Of a stretch of 64,000 nucleotides of DNA, positions 860 to 59,766 are shown one piece after another. The stretch is from assembly GCA_963849325.1 (NCBI GenBank), contig CAWKHF010000007.1, positions 160,001-224,000 on the forward strand, given 5' to 3'. The notes below the pieces were generated by a model. The model was not told the DNA's origin and ran no database searches. It saw nothing but the letters and a program-made list of their open reading frames with translations. Made by a program: the position numbers and the translations under genes. Source of the stretch: an uncultured Planctomycetota bacterium. GTDB lineage: Bacteria; Planctomycetota; Planctomycetia; Gemmatales; Gemmataceae. How positions within the stretch are numbered: position 1 is the first letter of the stretch; each line of letters begins with the position of its first letter.

Positions 860-1299
860 GGTTAAGCCTCGCCTTCGAGAGAGCCGTCAAGGACAAGAAA
901 CCACAAACGAGTCAAGATCGTTAAAGAATGATAAACCCCGTTTCTCGGTGAAGGCAAGCTGCTTTTCGCAACCGCGCCTTCCGCGTCCGTGGCGCCGCTG
1001 GAAAAATCGGCATCCTCCGCGGGGAGATGGCTCGGCCTTGCGCCGTCTTCCGCGCCGCGGCGCCCCTCGCCACCCCGGGTTGATTTGCCCACCCGCTCGC
1101 ACTACAATCTGAGAGGGTCATGGGTTGATCGCCTGAAAAAATGCCACACCTTTCCGCTACCCTTGTCCCCACAGGATTCAGTGACGTCGCAAGGCGTTGA
1201 GCAGAGCAGAGCAGAACGTTTTACCGACCGCGCTCGCAAGGGGATGCAGAATTCAGTGATGCCGGAAGGCGTTGAGCCAAGCAGCGGGGAGATTATCGG

Positions 1300-3822
1300 A
1301 TGTATGAACGCTTCACGGATCGCGCCCGCAAGGTGATGCAGCTGGCCAACCAGGAGGCCCAGCGCTTCAACCACGAGTACATCGGCACCGAGCACATCCT
1401 CCTGGGCCTGGTCAAGGAAGGCTCCGGCGTCGCCGCCAACGTCCTCAAGAACCTCGACATCGACCTGCGCAAGATCCGCCTGGAGGTCGAGAAGATCGTC
1501 CAGTCCGGCCCGGACATGGTCACGATGGGCAAGCTGCCCCAGACGCCGCGGGCCAAGAAGGTCATCGAGTACTCCATCGAAGAGGCCCGCAACCTCAACC
1601 ACAACTACGTCGGCACCGAACACCTGCTGCTGGGCCTGCTGCGCGAGCAGGAGGGCGTGGCCGCCCAGGTCCTCATGAACCTCGGGCCTCAAGCTGGAAG
1701 ACGTGCGCGAGGAAGTCCTGAACTTACTGGGGCACAATATGGCGACGGAAGAAAGCGGCGGCGGCGGCGGCGGCGAACGGCAGACGAGCAAGGGCAAGTC
1801 CAAGACCCCGGCCCTGGACAGCTTCGGCCGCGACCTCACCGAACTGGCCCGCCAGGGCAAGCTCGACCCGGTCATCGGCCGGCAGAACGAGATCGAGCGC
1901 GTCATCCAGGTCCTCAGCCGCCGCACCAAGAACAACCCCGTCCTGCTCGGCGAGGCCGGCGTCGGCAAGACCGCCATCGTCGAGGGCCTGGCCCAGCTGG
2001 TCGTCGATAGCAACGTCCCCGAGCTGCTGCGCGACCGCCGCATCGTCGTCCTCGACCTGGCCATGATGGTCGCCGGCACCAAGTACCGCGGCCAGTTCGA
2101 GGAGCGCATCAAGGCCGTCATGAACGAGGTCCGCCGGGCCAAGAACACCATCCTGTTCATCGACGAGCTGCACACGCTCGTCGGCGCCGGCGGCGCCGAA
2201 GGGCGCCATCGACGCCTCCAACGTGCTCAAGCCGGCCCTGGCCCGCGGCGAGATCCAGTGCATCGGCGCCACCACCCTCGACGAGTACCGCAAGTACATC
2301 GAGAAGGACGGCGCCCTGGACCGCCGCTTCCAGCAGATCATCGTCAACCCGCCCTCCAAGGACGAGACGATCGAGATCCTCAAGCGGCCTGCGCGACCGC
2401 TACGAGGCGCACCACCGCGTCCAGATCAAGGACGAGGCGCTGGAGGCGGCCGTCGAGCTGTCCGACCGCTACATCAGCGGCCGCTGCCTGCCGGACAAGG
2501 CCATCGACGTGATCGACGAGGCCGGCGCCCGCGTCCGCCTCAAGGCCATGACCCGGCCGCCGGACCTCAAGGAGCATCGACGGCCAGATCGAGCAGCTCA
2601 ACCAGGAGAAGGAGGCCGCCGTCGCCGAGCAGGACTTCGAGAAGGCCGCCCACCTGCGCGACCAGGCCGACAAGCTCAAGAAGAAGAAGGAGACCGATCA
2701 CCCGCGAGTGGCGCGAGAAGTCCAAGGAGATCGACGGCGTCGTCGATGAGGAGGTGATCCCGAGGTCGTCAGCAAGATGACCGGCGTGCCGCTGACGCGC
2801 ATCGACGACGACGAGACGCAGCGCCTGCTGACGATGGAAGACGAGCTGCACAAGCACGGTCGTCAGCCAGCACGAGGCCATCAAGGCCATCGCCAAGGCG
2901 GTGCGCAAGAGCCGGGCCGGCCTGAAGGACCCGAAGCGGCCGATCGGCAGCTTCATCTTCGCCGGCCCCACCGGCGTCGGCAAGACGCTGCTGGCCAAGC
3001 AGCTGGCCAAGTTCATGTTCGGCGACGAGAACGCGCTGGTGCAGATCGACATGTCCGAGTACATGGAGAAGCACAACGTCAGCCGGCTCGATCGGCGCCC
3101 CGCCGGGCTACATCGGCTACGAAGAGGGCGGCCAGCTGACCGAGAAGATCCGCCGCCGGCCGTACAGCGTGGTGCTGCTCGACGAGATCGAGAAGGCCCA
3201 CCCCGACGTCTGGAACATGCTGCTGCAGATCATGGAGGAGGGCCGGCTGACCGACAACGTCGGCCGGACGATCGACTTCAAGAACACCATCCTGATCATG
3301 ACGACGAACATCGGCGCCGAGCAGATCGCCGGCCGCCGCGAGTTCGGCATCCACACCGCCGGCGCCGCAACGAGGACGCGACCTACGAGGCCATGAAGGA
3401 GCAGCTCAAGGACGAGATGGAGACGCAACTTCCGGCCGGAGTTCCTCAACCGCCTGGACGACATCATCGTCTTCCGCAGCCTGACCGAGGACGACCTCAA
3501 GCACATCATCGACATCGAGCTGGCCAAGGTGACGAAGCGGCTGACCGAGAAGGGCCTGACGCTGGTGCTGACCGACGAGGCCAAGGACTTCCTGATCGAG
3601 AAGGGCACCAGCCTCGAGTACGGTGCCCGGCCGCTGCGCCGGGCCATCGAGCACTACCTCGAAGACCCGCTGTCCGAGGACTTGCTGCGCGGCACCTTCG
3701 AGGGCAAGGACACCATCACCGTGCGCGTCAAGGAGGAGAACGGCGAGAAGAAGCTGTCCTTCGACGCCACGACGACCGCCACGCCCGAACTGGTCGGCGC
3801 CGGCAGCGAGGCCAAGAACTGA
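1300..3822 (+). CDS. clpC: ATP-dependent Clp protease ATP-binding subunit ClpC (multiple apparent frameshifts)
   Basis: [20 protein letters not shown]lp-N repeats; Walker A GEAGVGKT and GPTGVGKT; Walker B LFIDELH and [21 protein letters not shown]. Consecutive pieces lie in different frames. Confidence 0.95.
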
Positions 3823-3850
3823 CACCCGCCGGTCCAAAACCGCAACTTCT

Positions 3851-3883
3851 GAGGGGCACCTGGCAAAGGTGCCCCTCTTTTTT
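3851..3883 (+). terminator. Rho-independent terminator of clpC
   Basis: GAGGGGCACCT-GGCAA-AGGTGCCCCTC stem-loop followed by TTTTTT. Confidence 0.85.
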
Positions 3884-3889
3884 CTCTTC

Positions 3890-3956
3890 CGTTTAGCCGC
3901 GACGCGCAGCGGAGCGCGGGAACCTCCCGCGCTCCGCTGCGCGTCGCGGCTAAACG
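3890..3956. repeat. Palindromic REP-like repeat, family A, copy 1
   Basis: CGTTTAGCCGCGACGCGCAGCGGAGCGC-loop-GCGCTCCGCTGCGCGTCGCGGCTAAACG; identical arms at 5403 and 10604. Confidence 0.9.
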
Positions 3957-4032
3957 TGAAACGGGTTGCTCGATGCGTCCTTGAATGTTTCCGATTGGAA
4001 ATGCGCTTCGATAACAACGCTTCCAGGTCGAA

Positions 4033-5332
4033 TCATTTCCCGGGAACTTTAAGGACTTTACCCATCGTTTGAGTTAACAAATGTTCGCTCGGCCGCGCCA
4101 GGGCCACGGTCGGCTCGTAGCCTCCTTCGAGGTATGCCTTGTCGGTCGGGATGTAACCGGGGCCGCCGTCGCCGTAGCCGGCCACGCACACGAAGGCGTC
4201 TTTGCGTATCTCCTGGGCCTTGAGCTGGTACTCGATGAACGGCTCGCCCGGCAGGTGCAGCACGACGGCCTTGCCGAAGTCGAGGCAGGTCAGATCGATC
4301 GGCCGATCCTGGCGCTTCAGCCAGGCGAGTTGGAAGGCGGCGTTGCCGCGGCGCGCCTTGACGGCGGCGGCGTCCGCCAACACCTTGCGGCTCTCCTCTT
4401 CGCCGAACGACTTCTCGCGGCGCGGCGGCAGGTGGATCGGTTCGACGCGCCAGTCCCAGCCGGTTAGCGCGTGTCGCTGGGTCGCTTGCCAGGCCGCTTT
4501 CAAGGCGGCATAGACGCGATCGCGCAGCACGGCGCGGTTGGCCCGCGAACCATCGTTGTATTTTCCGGCCGTGACGTTGCCGGCGCAGCCCGTGAAGTAC
4601 ACTTGAAAGACCTTGGGATCGTCGTCCTGCCGTTTCTGCCGCGCCAGGCCGCAGAAATCGGCACTGACCCGGCCGTCGCCGTAATAGCTCATCGGGTGGG
4701 TGGCGTAGTAACTCAGGGCGGCCAGCGGCCGGTCGTCCTTCCAGAAACTCAGCGTTTTCAGCCAGGGATCGATCAGTCCCTCCGGCGCGTCACGGACTTG
4801 CGGATCCTTGGTGGCGCTGTAGCGCGTGAAGCGGACCTTGCCATTGTCGCCGACGATGCGACGATTGGAGGCGACTTGCTCGACCCGCGCCTGACCGAGA
4901 CCCAGATGCGTGAAAGACGAGGTTTTTTTGAGCGATTCTTGCAGGGCGTCGGCGGACTGACCGACGACGCGATCGAAGAATTTCAGGTCCAGCGACGGCG
5001 GCGCGCCGGGTACGCCGTCGAGAAGCCGCTGCGCCTCCACATCGGCGAAGGGAGCGTTGTGAGCATGGATGCAGTGGACGGCGACTCGTTCCGGCGTGGT
5101 ATGCGCCGCACTGCGCCAGGGTCTCGCGCCACTGGCGATTGGCCTTGTTGCGCAGACCGCACCAGTCCACGGCGCACAGCACGACGGGGGCGCCGGCGCC
5201 GAGCAGGACCACGCCCAGCGCCCGCAGAGGGTCGTCCACGCCGCGCACCGGCTCGATCCAGCCACCGCACAGGGGATGGCCCGCAGGGGGCGTCGCAATC
5301 GACTGAAAGATCGCTAGATGAAGTGCCGGCAT
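4033..5332 (-). CDS. Neutral/alkaline ceramidase-like hydrolase (one frameshift near 5105)
   Basis: ORFs 4790..5332 and 4033..5298 join into one protein: TPPAGHPLCGG, DDPLRALGVVL, HCIHAHNAP, YYATHPMSYYG, FTGCAGNV, LPGEPFIEY, GYIPT...GGYE. Confidence 0.6.
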
Positions 5333-5402
5333 GGTTGTTGCTCTCCCAGAGGTAGGGCGGTCGGCGCGGGTTTATCGTATGAAATTCGAGCAGTAAGTTC
5401 CC

Positions 5403-5461
5403 CGTTTAGCCGCGACGCGCAGCGGAGCGCAATGCGCTCCGCTGCGCGTCGCGGCTAAACG
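5403..5461. repeat. Palindromic REP-like repeat, family A, copy 2
   Basis: Same 28-bp arms as 3890, 3-nt loop. Confidence 0.9.
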
Positions 5462-5654
5462 AAGGGATTTGTAGACAAGACCTTCCACCATGACTCCGAG
5501 GGGGAGAAAGAAAGTTTTTGTCCGCTCGCTCTTATTTTGGCGTTGTCAGAGATGAGCGAAGTCGCTATAGGGCTGCCTTCTTGTCGGATGATTTCGGGGG
5601 AACGAAGCCGCGGGGGCGCCGCGCTGCGCGGTGGCGGCGGGAGGGGGACTATCC

Positions 5655-6021
5655 ATGACGGCCAATCCGTTGCTCAACCACATCTTGAGCGACGAGCGAC
5701 TGACGAGCGGTTTAGGTGACGCGGAAGCCCGCGTTCTGGTAGAATGGCTGGTGGAGCAGGCGGAAGAGCTGACGCGGATCGCCGCCGCCGCAGAGGCCGA
5801 CTCCGCGGTGCGGTGGCTGTGCCGCCGGGGCAGGGCCGTGGCTCATTTCGTCCGCCTGTGGTGCCTGGAAGAAGCGCGGGGCCGCCGGGCAGCTGGCCGC
5901 CGCCGAACGCTTCGCCTGGCCGCTTCCGGAGTCCAACGCCGATCCGTGCGAGCTGATGCAAGCCATCGTTTCCTGTGAGAGCGATCAGTTCTGGCAACAA
6001 CGCCGTCCCCTGGCGGCCTGA
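5655..6021 (+). CDS. Hypothetical protein (frameshift near 5880)
   Basis: RBS GAGGGGG; MTANPLLNHILSDERLTSGLGDAEARVLVEWLV continues after a shift as AAGQLAAAERFAWPLP...PLAA*. Confidence 0.65.
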
Positions 6022-6173
6022 CGAGGATCTTTTTATGAAAAAATCTGCTGATTGGGAAAGATAGGGGCTTGTACGAGGGGCTAGAAGTGAATATGGTGGA
6101 GTGATTTCCAGGGTCAACGTCGAGACGTACACCTTTGTTGTTCAGGTAATCCCCGCGGGGATGAGGTGAAGTT

Positions 6174-8300
6174 GTGAACGCCGCGACTAACTCTCCTTCC
6201 AGTCCTTCCGACCTCGAGCAAGAGCGTCGCCGTATCGCCCATCGGCTGGAAGAAGTCGCCAAGCTGAGCGACACCAACGTCCCGCCCGGGGCCTTTTACG
6301 GCGAAATGCTCAAGCGTCTGCTGGAATCGCTGGCCGCCCCCGCCGGTGCCATTTGGCGCGTACCCCACAGGGCAACTTGCAGCTCCAGTACCAGATCAAC
6401 ATCAAGGAAATCGGTCTGGAGCAGAACGAAGAAGTGCGAAAAAGCCACGAGGAACTGCTGCGGCAGGCGGTGACGCAGACGAAGCCGTTCCACGTGCCGC
6501 CGCGCAGCAGCGTCGGCACGCCGGAGCCGGGCAAGACGCCGGCCGGCAACCTCACCGATTACACCCTGCTGATTTCGCCTATCCTGGTCAATCAGCAGAT
6601 GGCCGGACTCATTGAGGTCTGGCAGGGCGCCAATCGGCCGCCGCAGGCCATCACCGGCTATCTGCAGTACATGGGCTTCATGTCGGAGCTGTCTTCGCGC
6701 TATCAGCGCAATCAGCTCATGGGACAGTTGGCCGGCCAACAGCAGGTATGGTCGCAGCTGGAGGCGTTCGCCCGGCAAGTCCACAACAGCTTGAATCCCA
6801 CCGAGGTCGCCTACCTGGTGGCCAACGAAGGCCGCCGACTGATCGAATGCGATCGCGTCAGCGTGGCCGTGCGCCACAGCTCCAAGGCGCGCATCGAGGC
6901 CGTCAGCGGCGCCGACGTGGTCGAAACGCGCTCCAACCTCGTTCGCTTGATGCGTACCCTGTGCGAGCGCGTGCTGAGCTGGGGCGAGAAGCTGGTCTTC
7001 AACGGCACCCGCGACGACAGTCTGCCGCCGAAGGTGCTGGCGGCGCTGGATGCGTACCTGGCCGAGAGCAATAGCAAGCTGCTGGTCGTGCAGCCGTTGA
7101 AGGACGAGCGCGAGAAGGAGAGTAAGCGGCCGGCACGCTCCGCTCTGCTCATGGAGTGCTTCGAGCCGCCGGCCCAGCCGCAGCAGATCCTCGCCCGTCT
7201 CGACGTGGTCTCTCGTCACGCCACGCCCGCCCTATACAACGCCGTCGAGCATCGCCGCATTCCGATGCGCATGCTGTGGCTGCCGTTGGCCAAGGTGCAG
7301 GAGGGCATCGGCGGCAAGGCCAAGGCCATCTCCGCCGTCGCCGTTGCTCTGCTCAGCGTCCTGGGCGCCGCCCTGTATTTCGTGCCTTATCAGCTGAAGA
7401 TGGAATCGCACGGCAAGCTGGTGCCGTGGGCCCGTCGCGTCATCTATCCGCCGGCCAACGGCACCATCATGAAGTTCGAGGTCGAGCCGGGCGACGTCGC
7501 CCGCGAGGATCGACGCCTGGCGACCGTTTTCGACCTTGAGTTGCAGAAGAAGTTGAACGCCATGATGGAGATGATCGCCGGTGCCGAGACGGAGATGCTC
7601 CAGGCGCAGGCGAACGCCTCGACGCACCGGGCTAGCCCAAGGCGACAAGATCACCTACCGCGAGAAAGCGCGGATGCACGAAGACCTGGTGAAACGCAAG
7701 AGACAGGAGTTGTATGAGTTCATTCAGCGTACCAACGCCCGGCCCGATAAGCCTGGCGAATTTGAACTCCGCGCCCCGCGGTTGACGGACGAGGAACGGC
7801 TGCGCGTCATTCGTCCGGAGTGGACCGTCCTCAACGGCAACTTCAAGGAGGAGTGGACCAATCGCATGGCCCGCCCCTCCGATCCGATCCTGCGCCTGGG
7901 CGTCAAGGATGGACCGTGGGAGATCGAACTGCGCATCCCGCAGAAACACATTAGCCAGGTGCTCAAAGCGTACGAACACAATGGCGGTCAGCCGCTCGAC
8001 ATCGAGTTTTTGCTCCGCAGCGATCCGACGCGGACGTATCGGGGCAAGCTGTACCGCGAGAAAATCGCCGGCGAGGCCCTGCCCAACCGCGACGAAAAGG
8101 ACGAGCCGGAGCCGGAGGTTCTCGCCTACGCCAGCATTGATGACGAGAGCATCGATCCGGCCTACCGCCTCTCACGCGAATCGCTGACCAGCGGCACGGA
8201 AATCCACGCCAAGATTCGCTGCGGCAAACATCGTCTGGGATATGCCCTGTTCTACGGGGTCTGGGAGTTCTTCTACGAAAAAGTCGTCTTCTTCTTCTAA
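6174..8300 (+). CDS. Tandem GAF domains + TM + HlyD-like membrane fusion protein (2 frameshifts)
   Basis: GAF-like segments (LLISPILVNQQMAGLIEVW; VANEGRRLIECDRVSVAV); TM AVAVALLSVLGAALYFVP; lipoyl motif IYPPANGTIMKFEVEPGD; beta-barrel ending SGTEIHAKIRCG. Confidence 0.75.
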
Positions 8301-8402
8301 GAGCCAGGAACACCGAGAAACATCGGCGAGCCGAAGCCAACGGCGCGAGGGCAAAGGTGCCCTCATGCCCACACCCCCGGCTCGCCCCGAGGAGTCGAAT
8401 CC

Positions 8403-10591
8403 ATGATCCGCTGGATAGCCGTCTGTGTGCTGCTGTCGGCGTGTGCCGTCGCCGCCGTTTGGGCGGTCGCCCCGAAAACCATCGTTGAGGACAAGGCTTC
8501 GCCCCCGTCGTCCCCTGCCGCCAAAGCCTTCGAGGCGCAGGGTGCGCCGGCGGCGGATAACAATCCTACACCCAGGGCGCCGGCGACCCTGCCTGGAGTG
8601 CGGCCCACGCCCGAGCTTGTCGAGTACAAGGACACGAAGCAGGCTGCCAGCGCCGAGCCGATCCACATCTATGGCTGCCGGCTGGTCATCGACCCGATCC
8701 AGGAAGTCCCCACGGAAAAGGAAGGCAAGATTGCTATTCATCGGCACCGAAGTGTTGCCCGGCGAGGTCGTGCCTGCGGACAAGAAACTTCCCGAGGCGG
8801 AGATCGGTTTCCTGGCCGTCCCCGTTGGCAAGGATGAAGAAGCTTCACGGACGGGGAGAAGCCCTTCCAACTCGATCCGAATTCCTCGACCCGGTATCGC
8901 CGTCTCCGCGAGACCGATCCGCTAGAGCCAAACAAGATCGCACTGGCTCGGGAGTTCCGGCCTGTCCGCAAGCTCCAGGTCGGCGACAAGGTGAAGCGCG
9001 GCCAGCTGCTGGCCCTGGTCAACCCGCGCAAAGTCGTTCGACGATGTGGCCATGAAGGTTGCCAAGATCAACGCCGCCGAGGCCGACCGCCACTCCGCCG
9101 AGAAACAGAAGAAGGAATTCGCATCGGCGTTGGAAGCTCGGCATGGATGCCAACCGCCGCGTTCCCGGCACCGTGTCCAGGGATGATGTGGAGGCCTGTG
9201 AAATTGCAGCGTGAGAAATACGGTTCGGAGGAGGAAGTCAAGGAGGCCGAGATCATCAAGGCGCAGCGCGAGCTGAACGCGGCCCTGACCGACCTGCGCA
9301 TGCACGAAATCCGCGCCAGCATCGACGGCGTCATCAAGGCCATCTACAAGAACGCCGAGGGCGAGGCCGTCAAGCCGCTGGAGTCGGTCCTGCAAATCCA
9401 GAACCCCGAACGGCTGCGCGTGGAAGGACTGCTGGAAGTGCAGGAGGCGCTCAAGCTCAAGGTCGGCATGAAGGTCATTGTCGGGGCGAGCCGGCCGGAG
9501 GCCCCTCACCTGGTCATCAGCGGGCACCTCGCCACGGTCAACGCCGTCGCCGTCAGCAAGGGCAAACGGCCGATCGTCGTCTCCGGCAGCGACGATGAGA
9601 CGCTGCGCGGCTGGGACGCGACCACCGGCGACAGGTTGTGGAAGTTGGAGGGGCTGCGTCAGCCGTCCGCGCCGTGGCCTGCACGCCGCCGACCGCCAAG
9701 AGCAACCTCGCGCTGTTCGGTTGCGCCGACGGCACGGTTCGCCTGCTCGATTTGGACAATCCCAAGCAGGGATCGCGTGACCTGGCCGAGCGGCATCAGG
9801 GTGGCGTCAACGGCGTGGCCTTCAGCCCCAATGGTGAGGTGTGCGCCACCTGCGGCGACGACCGCACCATTATCCTGTGGAAGACCGAGAGCGGCGAGTT
9901 GTTGCATCGTTTGACGTACCATCGCGGGCCGGTCACGTCGGTGCAGTTCGCGTCGGCCGACCGGCTGGTGTCGGCCGGCCGCGACGGCCGCCTGGCGGTC
10001 TGGGACGTCGAACCGGGCAAGCCGCCCGTCAAGCTGCCGCCGACCTTCGAGGGTCGCACCGCCGAAGTCTCCCAGGTCGGCGTCAGCCCCGATGGCCGCA
10101 CCGTCCTGTTCGACCAGGGCAAGGAACTGCGTCTGTTGTCGTTGGCCGACAAGCGGATCGAGGGCACGGTGCAGAACCCGTCGGACGCCATGAATTTCTC
10201 GACGATGGCTCTGTTCGCGCCGGACGGCAAGACGATCCTGACCAACGGCTCGGCGGCGGCCAAGCTGCAATTGTGGCGGACGCCCGGCCCACAAGGGCGA
10301 GCCTCGGAACTGCGCCAGCTCATCTGGGGCGGGGCTCCGGCCACCTGCGGAGCGTTCGCCCCCGAGGACGGCTCCTTCGCCGTCACCGGCACGCAGGACC
10401 ATAAAGTGCTGCTGTGGACCATGCCGGAGAAGAACGAGATCGAGAGTCGCCTGGAGGCCCACCTGATGCTGGTCGAGAAGTACCTCGACACGCAGTCGCG
10501 GCAGGTCCGCGTCTGGGCCGAGCTGCAGAACCCCGGCTGGCTCATCCCCGGCACTCAGGCCACCATGGTCGTTCCGCCGCAGCAGAAGTAG
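8403..10591 (+). CDS. HlyD-like membrane fusion protein with an inserted WD40 beta-propeller (several frameshifts)
   Basis: Signal/TM MIRWIAVCVLLSAC; GDKVKRGQLLA and HEIRASIDGVIKAI lipoyl halves; WD40 repeats (GHLATVNAVAVS...LRGWD, HQGGVNGVAFSPNG...ILWK); MFP C-terminus DTQSRQVRVWAELQNPGWLIPGTQATMVV. Confidence 0.75.
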
Positions 10592-10602
10592 CTGGAATAA
10601 CA

Positions 10603-10670
10603 TCGTTTAGCCGCGACGCGCAGCGGAGCGCGGCAAGCGACGCGCTCCGCTGCGCGTCGCGGCTAAACGA
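10603..10670. repeat. Palindromic REP-like repeat, family A, copy 3 (inside the operon)
   Basis: Same arms as 3890 and 5403, different loop. Confidence 0.9.
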
Positions 10671-10676
10671 GAATCG

Positions 10677-13250
10677 GTGACATTCATGGATACCACCACT
10701 CCCGCCAAAGACCTCGAACGACGCAAGCAAGTGCGCGTCCGCCTGCGCCGCGACCTTGCCATCGAGGCGCAGAAGTACGAAGGCCGCACCTTCCACGTCG
10801 TCAAGGATCCCGTCAGTCTCCGCTACTACCGCCTCAAGGACAACGAGTATTACCTACTGCAATTCCTCGACGGCCAGCACACCCTCGAAGATGCGCAGAA
10901 GGAGTACGAGAAGCATTACCGCCCTGACCGCCTGAAGCTCGAAGACGTGGAGTCGTTCGCCCAGCAGCTCATCAACGCCGGCCTGGCCCAGAACGAGTCG
11001 CCGTGCGCCGGCAAGCAGCTCTACGACCAGCGGCAAAAACGCCGCCGCTCCGAGTGGATGCAGACGCTGACCAACATCCTCTACATCAAGATACCCGTCT
11101 TCGATCCGGATCGGCTGCTCAAGCGCATGATCCGCTGGCTGGGCTGGATCTTCTCGATGTGGTTCTTCGCCGTCAGCGTCGGCGTCATGCTGGCGGCGGC
11201 GATGCTGGTGATGACCCACTTCGAGACGTTCCGCTCCAAGCTGCCCGATCAGAACCTGTTCTTCCGCTTCAAGACCGTCGTCTATCTGTGGTGCGCCCTG
11301 GGCGTCGTCAAGGTCATCCACGAGTTCGGCCACGGACTCAGCTGCAAGGTGTTCGGCGGCGAGGTCCACGAGATGGGGGCGCTGTTTTTGTGCCTATCGC
11401 CGGCGCTGTACTGCAACGTCTCCGACGCCTGGACGCTGCCGAACAAGTGGCATCGCATCATCATCAGCGCCGCCGGCATCTACGTCGAGCTGGTCATCGC
11501 CGCCATCGCCACCTTTGTCTGGTGGCACACGCCGGCTTATCCGTTCGTCAACAACCTGGCCCTGAGCCTGATGGTGGTATGCAGCGTCAGCACTGTGGTC
11601 TTCAACGCCAACCCGCTGATGCGTTACGATGGCTACTACGTCCTGGCGGACTGGCTGGAGATCCCCAACCTGCGCGAGCGCTCCAATCGCTTCCTCAAGC
11701 ACCTGACGCTGGAGCACTGCCTGGGTGTGGAGGTGCCGCCCGAACCGTACATGGCCCTGTGGCGGCGCATCCTGTTCGTGACCTACGCGGTGGGCAGCTA
11801 CATCTACCGCTGGGTCGTGACCTTCACCATTTTGTGGTTTTTGTATTCGTTCTTGCGGCCGTACAAGCTGGAAGTCATCAGCCAGGTGCTGGCCATCGGC
11901 TCGGCCGCGTCGATGGCTGGCTGGCCGCTGTATCGACTGGGCAAGTCGATCTACCGACGTGGGAGACTCCCTGACATGAAGAAGTGGCGTGTGGTGGTCA
12001 GCGCCGCCGTGCTGACGGCGCTGCTCCTGTTCGCCTGCCTGGTCCCCGTGCCCGTCAGCCGCATTCGCGCTCGGGCCATGCTCCAGGCAGACCCGTCGGC
12101 CTCCGGCAAGGTCTACGTTCGCCACGCCGGCATCCTGACCAAGCTGTACGTGCGGCCCGGCGATACCGTGGATGCGGGCGACGTGCTGGCCGAGTTCTCT
12201 GACCGCGAACTCGACGCCGATCTGCTCAAGGCACGCATCGAGCGCGATCATGCCGCCGAGCAGATCAAGGTGCTCGAACAGCGAAGGATGCGCAACAACG
12301 ATCCCGCGGAAGTCGGGAAGATCAACGAGGAGACCGCCAAGCTGGAGTCCCAGCGGATGGACGCGGCAGTTCGCGTGGCGGCGCTGGAGAAGGTCCACGA
12401 TCAGGATCTGGTGTTGCACGCGCCTTGCTCCGGCGTCATCGGCATGGCTCCCTCGATCGAGGACGTCAGTCGCTTCTTCCAGGACGACCCGAGCGCGCCG
12501 TTTTGTTCCATCAACGAGCCGGGCCGCGTCCGCGTGTGCGTGCCGCTGGAGACGCCGGAGTTCAACCGCCTCAAGGAAAACCTGGAGCAGCTGTCCGACG
12601 CGGCGACGGCCACGCGCAAGCTGATGAAGAAGCGCGTCACCGTCTCTTACGACAAGACGCGCCTGGCGGACGTGCTGGCCGATCTGCAACATCAGGTCAA
12701 GGGGTTGCACTTTCAGCTAGACAAGGACGGCGGCGTCTCCGAGAGCCTGCCCGTCTCGTACCAGGCGAAGAATCAACGGCTGGGATGGGTGCTGGACGGG
12801 GTGTTCGAGAAGCTGGGTCTGGGCTTCGTGCTCCAGTCCGAGCCGGACGGCGAGCACGACGGCTGGCTGCTGGTGCGGGCGGGTCGGGAACGCGGCGAGC
12901 CGGAGGGCGGCCGGCGCCTGGCCGATCTGGACGTGACCATCCGCATCCAGGGCCGCGATACCCAGACGTGGAAGGGCAAGGTCCGCCAGCTGCCCGAGTC
13001 GGAGGCCAAGTCGATCCCGCTGGCCCTGTCCAACCGCGGCGGCGGGCCGGTGGCCGTCAAGGCGGCCGCTCCCGGCAACGCCTTGATCCCGTCCACGCAG
13101 CATTACCTGGTTTATGTCGATCTCGTCGATGCCGACGCGTCGATCCTGCCCGGCGAGATGGCCCAGGTGAAAATCTACTGCCAGCCCGAGACCTGCCTGC
13201 ACTGGCTCTGGCGCACGCTCAATAGCACCTTCGATCTCGGTCTGATGTAA
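10677..13250 (+). CDS. Site-2 protease (peptidase M50) with PqqD-like N-terminus fused to an HlyD-like domain
   Basis: Intact 857-aa ORF. HEFGH zinc motif; ISAAGIYVE; NANPLMRYDGYY (NPxxxxDG); multiple TMs; GILTKLYVRPGDTVDAGDVLA lipoyl motif; N-terminal VVKDPVSLRYYRL...LLQFLDGQHTLE resembles PqqD/RRE. Confidence 0.85.
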   Translation: MTFMDTTTPAKDLERRKQVRVRLRRDLAIEAQKYEGRTFHVVKDPVSLRYYRLKDNEYYLLQFLDGQHTLEDAQKEYEKHYRPDRLKLEDVESFAQQLINAGLAQNESPCAGKQLYDQRQKRRRSEWMQTLTNILYIKIPVFDPDRLLKRMIRWLGWIFSMWFFAVSVGVMLAAAMLVMTHFETFRSKLPDQNLFFRFKTVVYLWCALGVVKVIHEFGHGLSCKVFGGEVHEMGALFLCLSPALYCNVSDAWTLPNKWHRIIISAAGIYVELVIAAIATFVWWHTPAYPFVNNLALSLMVVCSVSTVVFNANPLMRYDGYYVLADWLEIPNLRERSNRFLKHLTLEHCLGVEVPPEPYMALWRRILFVTYAVGSYIYRWVVTFTILWFLYSFLRPYKLEVISQVLAIGSAASMAGWPLYRLGKSIYRRGRLPDMKKWRVVVSAAVLTALLLFACLVPVPVSRIRARAMLQADPSASGKVYVRHAGILTKLYVRPGDTVDAGDVLAEFSDRELDADLLKARIERDHAAEQIKVLEQRRMRNNDPAEVGKINEETAKLESQRMDAAVRVAALEKVHDQDLVLHAPCSGVIGMAPSIEDVSRFFQDDPSAPFCSINEPGRVRVCVPLETPEFNRLKENLEQLSDAATATRKLMKKRVTVSYDKTRLADVLADLQHQVKGLHFQLDKDGGVSESLPVSYQAKNQRLGWVLDGVFEKLGLGFVLQSEPDGEHDGWLLVRAGRERGEPEGGRRLADLDVTIRIQGRDTQTWKGKVRQLPESEAKSIPLALSNRGGGPVAVKAAAPGNALIPSTQHYLVYVDLVDADASILPGEMAQVKIYCQPETCLHWLWRTLNSTFDLGLM

Positions 13251-13271
13251 GCGAGACGTAGTTTCCAACCT

Positions 13272-13335
13272 CTGAGCGGGGGGCTGACGCCCCCTGAGTC
13301 TTGCAAGACTCAGGGGGCGTCAGCCCCCCGCTCAG
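13272..13335. repeat. Perfect 64-bp palindrome between convergent genes (probable bidirectional terminator or REP)
   Basis: CTGAGCGGGGGGCTGACGCCCCCTGAGTCTTGCAAGACTCAGGGGGCGTCAGCCCCCCGCTCAG equals its own reverse complement. Confidence 0.9.
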
Positions 13336-14429
13336 CGTTGCAACACGTCGGGACGCACGAACTCGGCGCCCTGAATGCGGATGCGCTTGAGCGGCCATAC
13401 TTCGGTCGGCGTGACGATCTTCGGCCCTTGCTCGGTGATGAGGAAGGTATCGCAGCTGGACGCGGCGCCGGCGCTGGCGTTCCAGATGACGCTCCAGCCG
13501 GCCTGGAACAACTCCTCCGTCTGCGGCATCAGAGGCATTTCGATGGCGGCGCGGCCGGTGAGGTAGCCTTGCGGCGCCAGTTGCCATTCGTGCTCGAAAC
13601 CACTGATGAGATAAATGCGCCGCCCGGCCAGGAGAATCTCGCGCGGCACGGCGTCCGGCCAGGTCGAGGCGAGATAACTGGCGCTGACCCGGCACACCGC
13701 ATTGTGGTCCTGGCGAAGATCCGCCGGCGGCTCGCCGAAGCACACCGCTCGGCTGGCCGTGACGTAGACGCCATACTTGCGGGCCGTCACCATCAGCACG
13801 GCGTAATGTTCCAGCGTCGCCGACGTGAAGCCGAAACGGCGATACAGGCGCGAACGACCGTCCACGGCGACGCCGACGTGCAAGGGCAGGATGCCGCGAT
13901 GAATGAGGCGATGACTGACGTGGCCGGCGATCTCGCGTTCGGACTCGCCCCGCGACAGCGTGCGGCAGGTTGCTTCGAGGGCGTGTGCCAGGGTCTGTCC
14001 CACGGCCAGTTGGCAGGCTTGTTCGTAGGCCGTCAGACGGCGGCGCAGGCGGCGCATCGGCTCGGCCACGTTGACGACGCCGGGACAGGGCCGATCGCAG
14101 GCTACCTTGCGGTTCTGACACAGGTCGGCCAGGATCTGATCGCGGCCCCAGTGCCAGGGCCATTCCTTCAACTGGAAGCCCAGGCCATCGACTTCCTCGT
14201 CAAAGAGGCGCAGCGAATCGACGTTGCTGGCGATGATCCAGCGATGTTCGCCGTTGCAGTAAGCGGCCGGCTCCGCGGCCGGGTCGCCCAGCCCGCGCGA
14301 CATGGCCCCACCCGTCAGCCAGGCGAAATTGGCCGGGTCCAAAAGCAGCAAGCCTTCGCATCCGACTTCCTGGAGCAGTTCGGCCACCCGCGCCACCTTG
14401 GCGTCGATGTCGGCCCGCCGGTCCGACAT
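13332..14429 (-). CDS. M24 (Xaa-Pro peptidase/creatinase fold) family protein, possibly inactive; start uncertain
   Basis: GLLLLDPANFAWLTGG creatinase-N-like start; GESEREIAG; ARKYGVYVTASRAVCFG; WNASAG...DTFLITEQG. Confidence 0.7.
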   Translation of the reverse strand: MSDRRADIDAKVARVAELLQEVGCEGLLLLDPANFAWLTGGAMSRGLGDPAAEPAAYCNGEHRWIIASNVDSLRLFDEEVDGLGFQLKEWPWHWGRDQILADLCQNRKVACDRPCPGVVNVAEPMRRLRRRLTAYEQACQLAVGQTLAHALEATCRTLSRGESEREIAGHVSHRLIHRGILPLHVGVAVDGRSRLYRRFGFTSATLEHYAVLMVTARKYGVYVTASRAVCFGEPPADLRQDHNAVCRVSASYLASTWPDAVPREILLAGRRIYLISGFEHEWQLAPQGYLTGRAAIEMPLMPQTEELFQAGWSVIWNASAGAASSCDTFLITEQGPKIVTPTEVWPLKRIRIQGAEFVRPDVLQR

Positions 14430-31577: not shown

Positions 31578-32326
31578 TTACGACTGCACCCCACAGCGCC
31601 AGCGGACCAGGAACTCGCTCACCGCCCGCCGGTCGCGCTCCTCGGGCAAGCTCGACTCCTCGTACGCCCTGTCCAGCAGACCCTCCAACTCCCGCACCTG
31701 GGCGTCGTGAAAAGCCCAGTCCAGGTCCGGCGCAGACCCTTTCTCCTCTCGCTTCTGCGCGATCAGCTCGCCCAGGAATGGCCGCTGGTACTCCTGGGCC
31801 AGCCGGGGCAGGTTCGCCTCCACCTCGCCGGTGCGCAGCAAGTGGATGCCGGTCAGCAGCACGCGGTAGGCGTACAGCACCGTCTTGGTGATCTTCGGCT
31901 CCTGCTTGTCGAGCAGCTTGCGCTGCGTGGCGATGAAGCCTCGATAGTGATGGAAGTGGTGCCGGGTGACGCATCGCCGCGCCAGGGGCCGCAGCGCGTC
32001 CAGGAAGCCCTGGCCGGTCACAACCAGCGGCGAGAAGATCTGCTCCAGGACGTAGCCGTTGTTCTTCACCAGCAGGCGCAGGTACTTGCCCAGGTCGTGG
32101 CTGACCAGCTCGACCTCCACCCCGGCCAGGTCCAGCTTCCGCTCTACTGTCTGGTCAGGAAGATCCAGACCAACGACATCCCGTAGCGGTAACAGGTGCG
32201 CCCGCGCAAATCCACGTCGCTGTCGGGTGACGGGAAGCCGTAGAGGTGAGCGCCGCTGACGGTCACGAACAACGGTCGATACTGCTGCCCCTCGACAAGC
32301 TGTCGCAACGCCACCATGTCAAGCAT
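31578..32326 (-). CDS. Pol-beta superfamily nucleotidyltransferase, PF10127/YcgL/RlaP-like (frameshift near 32195)
   Basis: VSGAHLYGFPSPDSDVDLRG; HDLGKYLRLLVKNNGYVLEQIFSP; LYAYRVLLTGIHLL. Confidence 0.85.
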
Positions 32327-33259
32327 CAACCATCCTCCTCCGCGCCCCGATCAGGAACTCGTCCACCCGTCGATAGTCGGGCTGCTCGGGCAGCATCGTC
32401 CCTCGATACGCCTCCTGGAACTGGCGGTCCAACTCCAACGCCCGATCCCTCGCCTGCTCGAACGATAGCCCCCCAGCCTTGATGGCCAGCAACTCGTCGC
32501 GGTGTTCGCCGACGTCGATGCGGATCATGCCCGAGCGCAGGGCCTCGATGCCCGAGTACAGCAGGCGGATCAGGTGCATCGCGTGCTTCGCCTTGTACTT
32601 GCCGGTCTTCGCATAGGCGTTGGCCATGCGCCGGAACTGGCTGAGGACATAGCCGGAGTACGTCTTGTACAGGTAGCGTGTCAGGAAGACCTCGCGCATC
32701 TCACGCAACCGCTGGGCCACCTCGTCGGCGTGCAACACCAGCGGCGTCCACAGCGTCTCCAGCACGTTCGGGTTCGCCTTGAGCGCCAGCTTCAAGAACT
32801 TCTCCAGATCCCAGTAGACCTCGTCCCTGCCCTCGGCGTTGAACTCCAGCTGCTCGGGCAGTTTGAACAGCGACCAGTGCAGCCGGGCCGGCGGTAGGTA
32901 GACGCCTCGCATGTCGTCGTCGGAATCCTCACCGGCCAGGCCGAAGGCGTGCGAGCCGACCCGGCAGCGGTAGACGACCCAGGGCGCAAGTCTTCATCTG
33001 TCAGGGCGAGCTGATCCTCGACCTCCTTGCGGCGGATGGCCAGCTCGCGGAAGCGCGCCTTGACCGTCTGGCCGTCGGCGAAGCGCAGCGTGTAGGCGTG
33101 CGCGTTGTCGGCCGGGCTTTCGGCGACGACGGCCACGCTGCCCCGCTGCCGCACCGTGCCGTCCGGCAGCGGCTTGTCCACCTTGAGAACGACTTGCGTG
33201 CCGGTCGAGATGATGAACGTCGGCAGCAGGTGCCGGAACGAGTGCTCTTCCAGGGCCAT
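32319..33259 (-). CDS. Second PF10127/RlaP-like nucleotidyltransferase with extra N-terminal beta domain (frameshift near 32980)
   Basis: VGSHAFGLAGEDSDDDMRGVY; KFLKLALKANPNVLETLW; KHAMHLIRLL; LPEQPDY. Confidence 0.85.
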
Positions 33260-34274: not shown

Positions 34275-34642
34275 GTTGTTGCGACAGATTTGAAATCGAC
34301 ATTACGATTCTATCGAGCGATTCCACAAAAACTTGAAGAAAAACGCGAAAAAAAGCATGGGGTGCTAGATTTTCACAGGAAGCACCGTATTCAATTCAGG
34401 CTTCTGGTTTTCTATCTCTCCGTTCAACCTGAGGTGGAGAACCCAGGCCGAGGAAAAATGAGGATTACCGGGCTTTGCCACGCATTAGCAGGAAATGGCA
34501 AGATAGCGAACGTAGGTCGGCATCCATCTTCCCTACCTTGCCATTTTTGACAATGCGTGGCAAAGCCGTTTACCAGATGGGCTCCTCATCATACGGTGAT
34601 TCAGTGCGCGACCTGAAAGGAAACCAGCGAGCGAAAAACTCT

Positions 34643-35761
34643 ATGAAAGTCTCACCGATCCTGGCCATCATCCTGGTGCTGATTTTCCTCTTCCTACCTG
34701 CTTGCCAGATGCACAAGGAGCAGCCTCAGCAGGAGCACCATAAGATCGTGGTCACCAGCCCTCAGGGAAAGTACGTCACCATCACCCAGCAATATGTCTG
34801 CCAGATCCACTCGCAGCGCCACATAAATGTCCGTGCCTTGCAGGACGGGTATCTCGACGAAATCCTGGTCAAAGAAGGCCAGTCGGTGAAAGAGGGCGAT
34901 GTACTGTTCAGAATCTTACCCACTCTTTACAAGGCAGAGTACGACGCAGAGTTGGCCGAGGCCCAGCTCGCGCAACTGGAGTTCAATAACACCAAGAAGT
35001 TGTGCGAGGAAAAAGTGGTCTCCATTCAGGAGGTGATGCTGCACCAGGTCAAACTGAATAAGGCCCTGGCCAAGGCGGAGCTGGCGAAGGCCAAATTGAA
35101 CTTTACCATCGTCAAAGCACGTTTCGACGGCATCGTCGATCGCCTGCACGAGCAGGTGGGCAGCTTGATCAAGGAACGGGACATCCTCACGACCTTGTCC
35201 GATAACAGCATGATGTGGGTTTATTTCAACGTACCCGAGAAGCGCTACCTCGAATACATGGCCGGCCTGGGTCAGGATAAAGAGGATCCGAAAATCGAAC
35301 TCGTGCTGGCCAACGGCAGCAAGTTCCCGAAGACCGGCAAGATCGGTGCGATCGAGGCCAAGTTCAACAACGAGACCGGGAACATCCCCTTCCGCGCGGA
35401 TTTTGAGAACCCGTTCCTTGCTGGGAGCATCAAGGAGGATCGCCTGCTGCGTCACGGTCAGACCGGCAACGTGTTGATCCACCGGACATTGAATAACGCC
35501 ATCGTCATCCCTCAGCGGGCGGTTTTCGAAACTCTCGAGAAGCGGTACGTTTATGTCGTCGGCCAAGATGACGTGGTGCATCAGCGCGAGATCGCCATCC
35601 AGAACGAACTGGAGGACATCTTCGTCATCAAGAAGGGACTTGATGTGAACGAACGGATCGTTCTCGAGGGGGTCCGGCAGGTTCGCGACAGCGAGAAGGT
35701 GGAATACGAGTTTCGTCCCCCGGAAGAGGCGATGGCAAACCAAAAGAACCATGCGGAATAG
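34643..35761 (+). CDS. RND efflux periplasmic adaptor (lipoprotein)
   Basis: Lipobox LPAC; GYLDEILVKEGQSVKEGDVLF; IVKARFDGIV; IVIPQRAV. Confidence 0.9.
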   Translation: MKVSPILAIILVLIFLFLPACQMHKEQPQQEHHKIVVTSPQGKYVTITQQYVCQIHSQRHINVRALQDGYLDEILVKEGQSVKEGDVLFRILPTLYKAEYDAELAEAQLAQLEFNNTKKLCEEKVVSIQEVMLHQVKLNKALAKAELAKAKLNFTIVKARFDGIVDRLHEQVGSLIKERDILTTLSDNSMMWVYFNVPEKRYLEYMAGLGQDKEDPKIELVLANGSKFPKTGKIGAIEAKFNNETGNIPFRADFENPFLAGSIKEDRLLRHGQTGNVLIHRTLNNAIVIPQRAVFETLEKRYVYVVGQDDVVHQREIAIQNELEDIFVIKKGLDVNERIVLEGVRQVRDSEKVEYEFRPPEEAMANQKNHAE

Positions 35762-35806
35762 CAACCGCTCCCCGGTACGGAAACCCCATAGGATCATCTC
35801 CAAACC

Positions 35807-38800: not shown

Positions 38801-38998
38801 GGAAACCGCACCATTGGCACGACCGCGGTCGGCGGGATGCTCGTGGGCACCTTGATAGGAGTCTTGGTAATTCCCGGCCTTTATTACTTGTTCGGCAGGA
38901 TTGCCGACGGGCGAAAGCTCCTCCGGGACGAGGTGGATAAACCTCTCAGTGAGACTCTCGAACACACAAATCATACCGGCGTCGCTCGAGCCGATTAG
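35807..38998 (+). CDS. RND efflux permease, HAE1/AcrB-like (frameshifts near 36325 and 37740)
   Basis: QFPSIAPPTV; MRIWLNPDRL; LAIGVVVDDAIVVVE; GLLGKNAILIVEFA; RFRPIQMTSFAFIAG. Confidence 0.92.
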
Positions 38999-39129
38999 GT
39001 CTCGGCGGGAGGGCAAGGTCTAGCTCGGTGCTTTGCACCAGGACAGCGTTGCGCCGCCCGAACGGTCATTTGGTCTTGCTCAGTCGTGCCCAGTTGCTAT
39101 CCTCACGCTCATTCCAGGGGGATGGAGAG

Positions 39130-39521
39130 ATGGCCTTTCGGGCAATCCGTGTTGCTTTGCTGCTCTCGAGCCTGCCCATCGCAGGATGCGGGACCGTTGC
39201 AAACCTGGCCAAGTTGACTCCCGAGCAGGGTGGGAAGATCCCTTTTGGCGGGGTGAGACAAGATGTGTGCTGTATTAAGAAGGCGGAAAATGGAGAATTG
39301 GTGCTCCCAAGTCGGAGTCGGAGCAACATCCCCAGGTGGCGCGAATGCTATTCTACGCCGCAGACCTGCCGTTCAGTCTTATCGGTGATGTCGTGACGTG
39401 GCCTTATACGGCGACGTATACCTACATTAATCAGCCAATCCCTACCCCACCTGTCACACTGGCCCCTACCTATCCTGTGATACAGGCAACGGCCGACGAT
39501 CGGCCTCAGACCTCTCCGTAA
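39130..39521 (+). CDS. YceK/YidQ-like lipoprotein (frameshifted)
   Basis: Lipobox IAGC; CGTVANL...PFGGVRQD; ADLPFSLIGDVVTWPYT. Confidence 0.65.
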
Positions 39522-39816
39522 GTGCTTGCGAAAGCCGTTCCACTCCTATCCGACACTCACCCCCTATCGGCACCGCCTGCACTGGCTGGAGTTCCGGTAA
39601 CTGACTGGAGTTCCGGTAAATGTTGGAACGCTTGTCGCGGAGTCAAGGTCGGTCTCGGCGATAATCAGGGAAGATCCGCACCTGGAAGAATTGCTGTTGC
39701 GGGGGAAGACCCCGGACGCTATCAATGCCGACAAACAGGATCGCCACACACTGTTCCGACGTATTACTCGTTCGGCAGGATTGCCGACAGGCGCAAACTC
39801 CCCAAGGACGAGGCCG

Positions 39817-59200: not shown

Positions 59201-59766
59201 ATGCTGGTGACGTTCATGAACGAGCACTGGAAGGGCGGCGCGCTCCTCGACCGAGGCGGCCATCGTCGGCGCGGGCGAACGTCTGCGTCCGATTTTGATG
59301 ACGGCCTGCGCCATGACGGTCGGCATGGTGCCGATGGCGTTGGCGTTGGAGAAGGGCAGCCAGATGCAGGCGCCGCTGGGTCTGGCGGTGATCGGCGGCC
59401 TGGTGATGTCCACCTTCGCCACCTTGCTGGTGCTGCCGTCGATCTTCGCCGTCGTGATCGGCCGGAGCGTGGCTCCGCTCGCCGTCGATCTACCCCGACG
59501 ATCCCGACAGCGCCCACTACGACCCGCACGCCTACGAGCACGTGGACGAAAAGGTCACGCCCCATGAGGTCGAGCAGGTGCCGTCGCACGCGCAACCCGG
59601 CGAACACGGCCGCCTCTTCGAGCAAGGAGAAGTCGTTCACGTCGAACAGGTGACGTCGCGCACGCAAACCGATAAGCCCGGCCACGCCTCCGGCGGCCAG
59701 GAGTCAAGGGACGCCACGAACGCGCCCCGGAGTTACCCCCCTTTCCAGGAGATCTGTAATGCGTAG
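56224..59766 (+). CDS. RND efflux permease (many frameshifts)
   Basis: [79 protein letters not shown]. Confidence 0.9.

Follow-up and report, generated by a model that had tools for sequence, protein, structure and literature searches.

What can three membrane fusion proteins do together when no transporter is encoded beside them? The question is raised by a group of genes in a stretch of 64,000 nucleotides (referred to here as the window; positions 160,001 to 224,000 of contig CAWKHF010000007.1, assembly GCA_963849325.1) from an uncultured planctomycete of the family Gemmataceae. The initial annotation of the window had described three co-oriented genes, here called g1, g2 and g3, each coding for an HlyD-type adaptor (membrane fusion protein, MFP) fused to a different partner: GAF domains in g1, a WD40 propeller in g2, and a PqqD-like domain plus an M50 protease in g3. 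This description was borne out by profile searches and by the orthologues. The answer that we favour, with moderate confidence, is that the trio is the inner-membrane and periplasmic core of an envelope-spanning exporter that lacks an ABC protein and belongs to a secondary SecA_DEAD/type-I-secretion-like module. This reading is preferred because the trio is conserved and because, in a sample of genomes from the phylum, a short SecA-like ATPase (among the matches listed) and an N-terminal tag on giant proteins were found only in genomes that carry g3.

Four co-oriented genes were located on the plus strand between 5.6 and 13.3 kb of the window, namely a small upstream gene, smallUp (5655–6021), followed by g1 (6174–8300), g2 (8403–10591) and g3 (10686–13250). 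The last of these is a single open frame of 854 amino acids, in which a predicted PqqD/RRE-like domain (RRE, RiPP recognition element; RiPP, ribosomally synthesized and post-translationally modified peptide) is followed by an M50 intramembrane metalloprotease core, a last transmembrane (TM) helix and an HlyD-type adaptor. Pfam returned Peptidase_M50 (PF02163) at 34.0 bits, against a cut-off of 27.2, and HlyD_D23 at E = 1.1e-5; from NCBIfam, RND_mfp was matched at E = 2e-10. The two protease motifs reported as intact in the initial annotation, HExxH and NPxxxxDG, are present as HEFGH (11319–11333; H212, E213 and H216), the zinc-binding motif, and NPLMRYDG (11610–11633; N309, P310, D315 and G316). 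Both are invariant across an alignment of 52 sequences and both lie inside helices of the structural model; as judged from the sequence, the M50 active site is complete.

An AlphaFold2 model of g3 built on the same 52-sequence alignment had a predicted local distance difference test score (pLDDT) of 82.3 and comprised a strand-and-helix domain (residues 7–105; strands 17–20, 25–31, 34–40 and 47–50 together with helices), a helical membrane core (142–452) and an adaptor (459–849; 12060–13232 of the window). The PqqD/RRE-like domain is placed at residues ~14–105 (10725–11000) from this model and from a PqqD match below the Pfam cut-off. In the adaptor, a two-helix hairpin (H507–536/H540–574; residues 507–574, 12204–12407) and an extra alpha/beta domain (638–716) could be recognized, and Foldseek comparison of the model with the PDB returned MexA (1vf7) at E = 5e-12 as well as AcrA, MacA, ZneB and EmrA, with values to 9e-9. 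For residues 1–455, sequence searching found no relatives in the PDB. Basic residues are found on the N-side of the first TM helix (four of them) and ahead of the last TM helix, and the N-terminal domain is predicted to be cytoplasmic and the adaptor part periplasmic. The adaptor also carries an alpha/beta insertion of about 110 amino acids (12588–12926), defined by alignment with orthologues, which is confined to the genus of the window and missing in seven orthologues of other genera. The insertion resembles stand-alone open reading frames (ORFs) of 61–367 amino acids that occur in each of 21 related genomes, such as that at 51398–51724 of contig C14 in the genome of the window itself; it gave no Pfam match at E ≤ 1, and its Atlas matches (0.77) were uninformative.

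The pieces of g1 in the window gave no Pfam match in profile searches because the gene is frame-broken. With intact orthologues as tblastn queries, residues 10–723 of g1 were covered in three frame pieces, and in Pfam these orthologues matched GAF (two regions across the orthologues), GAF_2/GAF_3, HlyD_D23, HlyD_3 and Biotin_lipoyl_2. Orthologues combining GAF with HlyD_D23/HlyD_3 come from loci L013, L021, L023, L024, L098 and L118 (for L023, HlyD_D23 at E = 1e-11 and HlyD_3 at E = 4.7e-10). By hydropathy, the L013 orthologue has a single TM helix at residues 398–416 (peak 2.28), which in the translated window falls at 7325–7390. The g1 protein would thus consist of a cytoplasmic region of about 395 residues with tandem GAF domains, one TM helix and a periplasmic adaptor. 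For g2, matches were obtained from the pieces themselves: HlyD_3 at 35 bits (cut-off 22.2), WD40 at E = 2.1e-25 and, in NCBIfam, RND_mfp at E = 7.8e-11; its orthologues carry HlyD_D23, HlyD_3, Biotin_lipoyl and WD40. Together with hydropathy and alignment to the L013 orthologue, these matches outline an N-terminal membrane anchor, a Pro-rich linker and an adaptor that is interrupted, ahead of its last beta-barrel strands, by the WD40 propeller (9513–10423; this piece is 77% identical to the L013 orthologue). Both the adaptor and the propeller are predicted to be periplasmic, held by the N-terminal anchor. The MFP assignments therefore stand, directly for g3 and g2 and by way of intact orthologues for g1.

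Of 21 relatives belonging to the same order, 20 have a full-length g3 orthologue and the remaining one matches the insertion domain only. The order g1-g2-g3 is kept in 13 of 14 loci from relatives (seven genera, two families), and the fourteenth ends in g2 at the end of its contig; in those 13 loci the genes are closely spaced single open frames, with lengths of 685–738 (g1), 686–815 (g2) and 736–920 (g3) amino acids. A wider scan, with one genome per species, gave 80 loci, from Planctomycetota apart from three doubtful bins. Of the 64 with at least 5 kb upstream of g3, 60 have g1 on the same strand within 4 kb. With such counts the arrangement is not due to chance. The flanking genes vary, and differ in all five genera compared. 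The three genes thus co-occur widely across genomes, a point on which the initial annotation had made its interpretation depend. When the N-terminal half of g3 was used as the query, 11,878 cluster representatives (50% identity) were retrieved at E ≤ 0.001, the best of them mostly 720–760 amino acids in length and so matching the fused form in size, and 5,981 relatives of g3 were scored among 8,000 candidates.

The three doubtful bins (L059, L069 and L087) are labelled Candidatus Kuenenia, Bacteroidales and Alcaligenaceae and carry Gemmatales-type trios with 51–60% g3 identity; probably the labels are mis-assigned or the contigs mis-binned. In Zavarzinella formosa (L071; NZ_JH636441.1, locus 7883–11878), smallUp is found about 1.7 kb before g3 and no match to g1 or g2 was detected in the 10 kb upstream of g3, and the trio is therefore rearranged or split in this species.

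Two parts of the locus are restricted in distribution. The WD40-type g2 was found in 32 of the 64 loci with sufficient upstream sequence, all of Gemmatales type; in Pirellulales-type loci the middle gene codes for a plain HlyD adaptor of 339–485 amino acids without WD40. Homologues of smallUp, which codes for a predicted cytoplasmic protein of about 115–120 amino acids, precede g1/g3 in 22 of the 64 planctomycete loci that extend far enough, again all of Gemmatales type. An alignment of 14 smallUp sequences had a mean column identity of 58%, and the orthologue from L048 was modelled by AlphaFold2 as a five-helix bundle (pLDDT 92.3). No match to smallUp was found in Pfam or NCBIfam, and a fold search gave designed helical proteins as its best neighbours (Z 7.6, under the noise guide for helical bundles), none of them informative. 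Its identification as DUF3467 was ruled out by hhalign (probability 0.13%).

The absence of ABC, RND, MFS and TolC genes from the operon, also claimed in the initial annotation, extends to 20 kb from the trio; among the ORFs screened over the interval 1–34 kb of the window, none has an ABC, RND, MFS or outer membrane efflux protein (OEP) domain. Pump genes are first met in a self-contained, canonical tripartite RND efflux operon at 34433–41586, 21 kb downstream and separate from the trio (adaptor, 34433–35758; AcrB-type, 35792–~39500, in at least two frame pieces; OEP, 39601–41586). Neither was a cognate ABC or RND gene found beside homologous clusters in the loci scanned, comprising five and seven planctomycete loci, three plasmid loci and the locus of the complete planctomycete genome G123.

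The interpretation offered in the initial annotation is thus supported in part. The lack of a pump does not leave the system without an energy source, however; the likely motor is a SecA-like ATPase, encoded elsewhere in the same genome and, in many relatives, within the operon. Conserved loci of this kind were described computationally, as "secondary SecA_DEAD / type-I-secretion-like", by Kamneva, Poudel & Ward (2015, PLoS One, PMC4452313). According to the main text of that paper, they combine a short SecA_DEAD protein with Peptidase_M50, GAF and HlyD/biotin-lipoyl proteins, sometimes with an OEP and never with an ABC protein; their parts can sit elsewhere in the genome, and Planctomycetes are among the phyla named. 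It was suggested there that SecA_DEAD provides ATP hydrolysis and the M50 protein membrane passage, and the function was stated to be unknown. The proposal in the initial annotation that the M50 protein takes the place of an ABC transporter had thus already been made there. As the module is characterized in the 2015 main text, the trio belongs to it and is not an orphan novelty: GAF-HlyD, M50-HlyD and an HlyD adaptor are clustered without an ABC gene, and a short SecA_DEAD protein lacking wing and scaffold is present elsewhere in the genome. The window differs from the module so described in the WD40 domain of g2, in smallUp before g1, in the genus-specific insertion of g3 and in the position of the SecA-like gene on another contig.

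In the genome of the window, this second SecA_DEAD locus lies outside the window on contig C1 (105925–107920) and covers residues 56–716 of a 716-residue orthologue. A second SecA_DEAD locus besides canonical SecA was present in 20 of 21 relatives, with an open frame of 649–738 amino acids where whole, and the short SecA proteins looked at consist of SecA_DEAD, PP_bind and P-loop_SecA without wing or scaffold. Thirteen of the 80 loci have the gene next to the trio and in the same orientation. It separates g2 from g3 in L070, follows g3 in L072 and L074, and precedes g1 in ten Pirellulales-type loci. For phyletic comparison, an even sample of 121 genomes of the phylum, related to one another, was used, in which g3 is present in 33 including that of the window, giving 32 other positives and 88 negatives. 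Among the matches listed (150 of 256), a short SecA, with a match starting before query residue 135, was found in at least 23 of the 32 genomes with g3 and in none of the 88 without it, and in at least 15 of the 32 it lies within 5 kb of g3. In two of three alphaproteobacterial plasmid loci, a gene annotated as "prepilin peptidase" proved to have the same SecA_DEAD, PP_bind and P-loop_SecA composition (E = 1e-103 and 8.5e-99), which puts a short SecA into the operon of the trio there.

These distributions bear on another possibility, in which the adaptors work with a conventional ABC, RND or MFS pump encoded at a distance in the same genome and have no connection with the SecA-like protein. 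An adaptor and its pump need not be encoded together, RND pumps and many OEP genes (22 matches) are present in the genome, and the short SecA gene is unlinked to the trio in Gemmatales. We regard this as unlikely, given that conserved ABC, RND or MFS neighbours of the trio were found at none of the loci compared, and that the short SecA gene adjoins the trio as often as described above and, among the matches listed, is confined to g3-positive genomes.

Candidate cargo was suggested by the plasmid loci with g3 homologues, in all three of which a giant gene lies directly upstream: one of 38.7 kb in Pseudosulfitobacter and one of 12.1 kb in Thalassospira, both annotated as LEPR-XLL, and one of 26.5 kb in Methylosinus, annotated as LamG-like. 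In two of the three, a DUF3467 gene stands ahead of the GAF-adaptor gene, and in two of the three a short adaptor and TolC stand at the end. In the complete genome G123, a single strand encodes an adaptor, an OEP, a PBP-like protein, a GAF-adaptor, an M50-adaptor, a SecA-like protein and an open frame of 5105 amino acids that starts with a match to NF012209 (LEPR-XLL). Across the 121-genome sample, NF012209 was matched at E ≤ 0.01 in 15 of the 32 genomes with g3 and in none of the 88 without it (Fisher p = 1.2e-10, uncorrected for phylogeny). The genome of the window contains 12 credible ORFs (loci L129–L140, on contigs C1, C2, C4, C5, C6, C7 and C12) that begin with Met, a basic stretch of 20–40 residues and LExLEDRxLLS; many are open for more than 1000 codons and several for 1100–3200. 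No tagged ORF lies in the window, the nearest being about 34 kb before its start. Two near-identical tagged copies were seen on C2, 6.7 kb apart (694077 and 700825). Literature searches found nothing relevant for LEPR-XLL.

Two further families recur around the trio. The small protein DUF3467 is encoded in 19 of the 80 planctomycete loci, mostly immediately after g3 (for example, L098:12221–12703, L111:12273–12707, L123:12212–12778, L127:9669–9989 and L128:9642–9938). In the genome of the window DUF3467 was matched at C2:838782 and C10:355070, neither of them near the trio, and the profile gave one chance match only, and no relative, against PDB sequences. A BBP7 beta-barrel porin gene (PF07585) lies, in divergent orientation, before the SecA-like gene in nine of the ten loci in which the latter is ahead of g1, the tenth being cut; these nine are of Pirellulales type (L096, L098, L107, L111, L112, L119, L120, L121 and L123, at about 2000–4200 of each). 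BBP7 is possibly an outer-membrane partner that replaces TolC in Pirellulales. The genome of the window has five BBP7 genes, none near the trio.

A working scheme can be drawn from these parts. The cargo would be giant proteins whose N-terminus has a basic stretch and then LExLEDRxLLS, and the tag would be bound by the cytoplasmic PqqD/RRE-like domain of g3, by analogy with RRE-peptidase fusions that bind RiPP leaders. Precedent for this comes from the closest curated family, the daptide leader peptidases discussed below; the conserved daptide leader motif ELExMEAP (Ren et al., 2023, PMC10036551), recognized by an RRE-M50 peptidase system, is similar to LExLE(D/P)R, the core of the tag, which is noted as a lead only. 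The SecA-like motor encoded on contig C1 would drive the chain through a channel made of the M50 domain and the TM helices of the adaptors, and the M50 site would cleave off the tag. Beyond the membrane, the three adaptor paralogues would form a mixed periplasmic tube docking onto an outer-membrane channel, which may be TolC-type in some lineages and possibly the BBP7 porin in Pirellulales. The tandem GAF domains of g1 could act as a cytoplasmic docking or sensing platform, and the WD40 propeller of g2 and smallUp would be Gemmatales-specific additions. The full proposal is a tentative one, which we put forward as possible and not as established: an undescribed diderm pathway in which a hetero-oligomer of three adaptors works with a cut-down SecA and an RRE-guided M50 protein, the latter serving as both channel and tag peptidase, to export giant proteins N-terminus first by way of LExLE(D/P)RxLL, maybe with BBP7 for TolC and with a periplasmic WD40 propeller in Gemmatales. 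Of the features described here, the WD40 insertion, the RRE-like domain, smallUp, the DUF3467 and BBP7 associations and the co-occurrence with the tag are absent from the main text of PMC4452313, where WD40 and PqqD are not mentioned and no cargo is named.

A number of observations weigh against the exporter and its proposed parts. On the side of g3, PqqD (PF05402) scored 19.4 bits, and 22.1 bits in the L013 orthologue, both under the cut-off of 23.4, and the NCBIfam profile daptide_HExxH (NF041824), matched over residues 35–382 at E = 3.8e-56, scored 190.8 bits with a cut-off of 300. On the side of the motor, a short SecA was not seen, among the matches listed, in up to nine of the 32 g3-positive genomes, nor was one found in the Thalassospira plasmid locus, and in five Gemmatales relatives the short SecA gene stands amid varying housekeeping genes. 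In the genome of the window, the trio is linked neither to the SecA-like gene nor to the DUF3467 genes, the OEP genes or any of the tagged giant genes, and the assembly has frame breaks in both g1 and g2. Relatedness among the sampled genomes means that the phyletic counts are not independent. Of nine tags of this genome tested with NF012209, only one scored over the cut-off, two more reached E ≤ 0.03 and six were unmatched. Enrichment of the tag beside the trio was not seen, with four tags in 1.31 Mb of sequence from the 80 planctomycete loci versus 17 in the 8.16 Mb of the genome of the window. A tblastn search with two OEP queries found no OEP within 10 kb of the trio in any of the 80 loci, which is a weak test because OEPs diverge fast. 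Finally, no experiment on any member of the module was found in the literature, nor any account of the module later than PMC4452313.

Another alternative is trans-envelope signalling, in which the M50 protein carries out regulated intramembrane proteolysis on periplasmic cues from the WD40 propeller and adaptors, or on cytoplasmic cues from the GAF domains, and nothing is exported. M50 enzymes are classic site-2 proteases and GAF domains are sensory modules; near the trio, an extracytoplasmic function (ECF) sigma factor gene was found in L020 and a response regulator gene after g3 in L023. However, no sigma/anti-sigma pair is conserved beside the trio, with flanks that differ in all five genera, and by Pfam the M50 domain of g3 has no PDZ domain. 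Transport is indicated instead by the three adaptor paralogues with hairpins of the TolC-docking type (modelled for g3), by the SecA-type motor, and by the genes for TolC and giant cargo that share operons with the module elsewhere; signalling without export seems to us improbable.

The exporter has also to be weighed against a RiPP-like role, in which the trio would mature and export a small ribosomal peptide and the RRE-M50 protein would remove its leader, as in daptide or epipeptide clusters. The match of g3 to daptide_HExxH speaks for this, as do a match to YydH/LiaK (E = 1.7e-12) and the name "PqqD family peptide modification chaperone" given to plasmid homologues of g3 by the Prokaryotic Genome Annotation Pipeline (PGAP). 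There is also a precedent in the daptide peptidase MpaP, for which Ren et al. (2023, PMC10036551) report intramembrane removal of a leader that depends on the RRE; MpaP/DapP (NF041824) has an N-terminal RRE/PqqD-like domain fused to M50, as is predicted for g3. Both profile scores are, however, under the NCBIfam cut-offs, and the C-terminal adaptor fusion of g3 lies outside the daptide profile of 379 positions. Modifying enzymes, an ABC exporter and short variable precursor genes were not found flanking the trio in the window or in the five and seven loci from relatives, and the daptide set of aminotransferase, decarboxylase and methyltransferase is not present beside g3 in the window or in the loci of five relatives. 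The sole conserved small gene codes for a confidently folded helical bundle of about 115 amino acids, not a leader-core peptide. The module co-occurs instead with giant tagged proteins, and the presumed substrate of g3 is a tag on these rather than a short precursor. A RiPP-like role is therefore considered very unlikely.

The coding status of g1 and g2 in this assembly was assessed against intact orthologues. The initial annotation had suspected indels, and at least seven breaks were confirmed in these two genes: two in g1, near 6356–6360 and 7632–7648, and at least five in g2, near 8740, 8860, 9050, 9200 and 9657 of the window as compared with the 741-residue L013 orthologue, with a stop at 8835–8837 in one frame. 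One more break was found in smallUp, near 5875. An unrelated neighbouring gene (4036–5341) is also frame-broken, the C1 gene for the SecA-like protein is split into four to five pieces, and canonical SecA is probably broken, being open for 1048 amino acids compared with 1101–1349 in relatives. Several of the break sites are short runs of G or C, the assembly of 14 contigs has a completeness of only 84.7%, and two other relatives with few contigs (L018 and L019) show the same pattern of breaks; the pieces between breaks in g1 and g2 are still 69–77% identical to the orthologues. The breaks look like assembly indels, because neighbouring and unrelated genes are broken as well and the orthologues of relatives are intact. 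That g1 and g2 are instead real pseudogenes, and the locus a decaying remnant in this strain, would fit the number of breaks in g1, g2 and smallUp and is the least probable of the alternatives, given the breaks in other genes (including the AcrB gene at 35792–39500), their position at G/C runs, the low completeness, the like pattern in L018 and L019 and the preserved identity of the pieces.

Several known systems share features with the exporter proposed here. The adaptors AcrA, MexA, MacA, EmrA and HlyD have the same lipoyl, beta-barrel and alpha-hairpin architecture with a single membrane anchor each; the trio differs in being three paralogues in one operon, each with an extra fused module and none with an ABC, RND or MFS partner, and its energy source is probably a SecA-type ATPase. 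Canonical type I secretion employs an HlyB-type ABC protein with an adaptor and TolC, whereas the trio has no ABC protein, and TolC/OEP genes are found in only some of the homologous clusters. Accessory SecA2 proteins of Actinobacteria and Firmicutes are second, divergent SecA paralogues dedicated to a subset of exported proteins. The short SecA is likewise a second divergent paralogue; unlike SecA2, it lacks wing and scaffold, occurs in diderm hosts and is linked to adaptors, M50 and TolC, not to SecY2/SecYEG. A relation between SecA clades is noted in PMC4452313.

Other features of the window were recorded alongside the trio. Another AcrB-type fragment (56586–58451) and another adaptor gene (59767–61122) occur within 56586–61122, and two adjoining genes of the RlaP family (RNA repair pathway DNA polymerase beta family) are found on the minus strand at 31581–32993. 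A scan for promoters and terminators over 5300–13600 gave two and three consensus matches, respectively, at or under the shuffled expectation, and was uninformative.

If the exporter reading is true, the trio would be part of a secretion route for the giant surface proteins in which planctomycetes and many proteobacteria are rich. Where type I secretion has a C-terminal signal and an ABC transporter, this route would rely on an N-terminal tag and a SecA-derived motor. Very large though the family is, the only description found in the literature is a computational one, in PMC4452313. The data presented here give testable links between g3, the short SecA and the tagged cargo, and add candidate parts to the module in DUF3467, the BBP7 porin, the WD40 insertion of Gemmatales and the small helical protein encoded upstream of g1.

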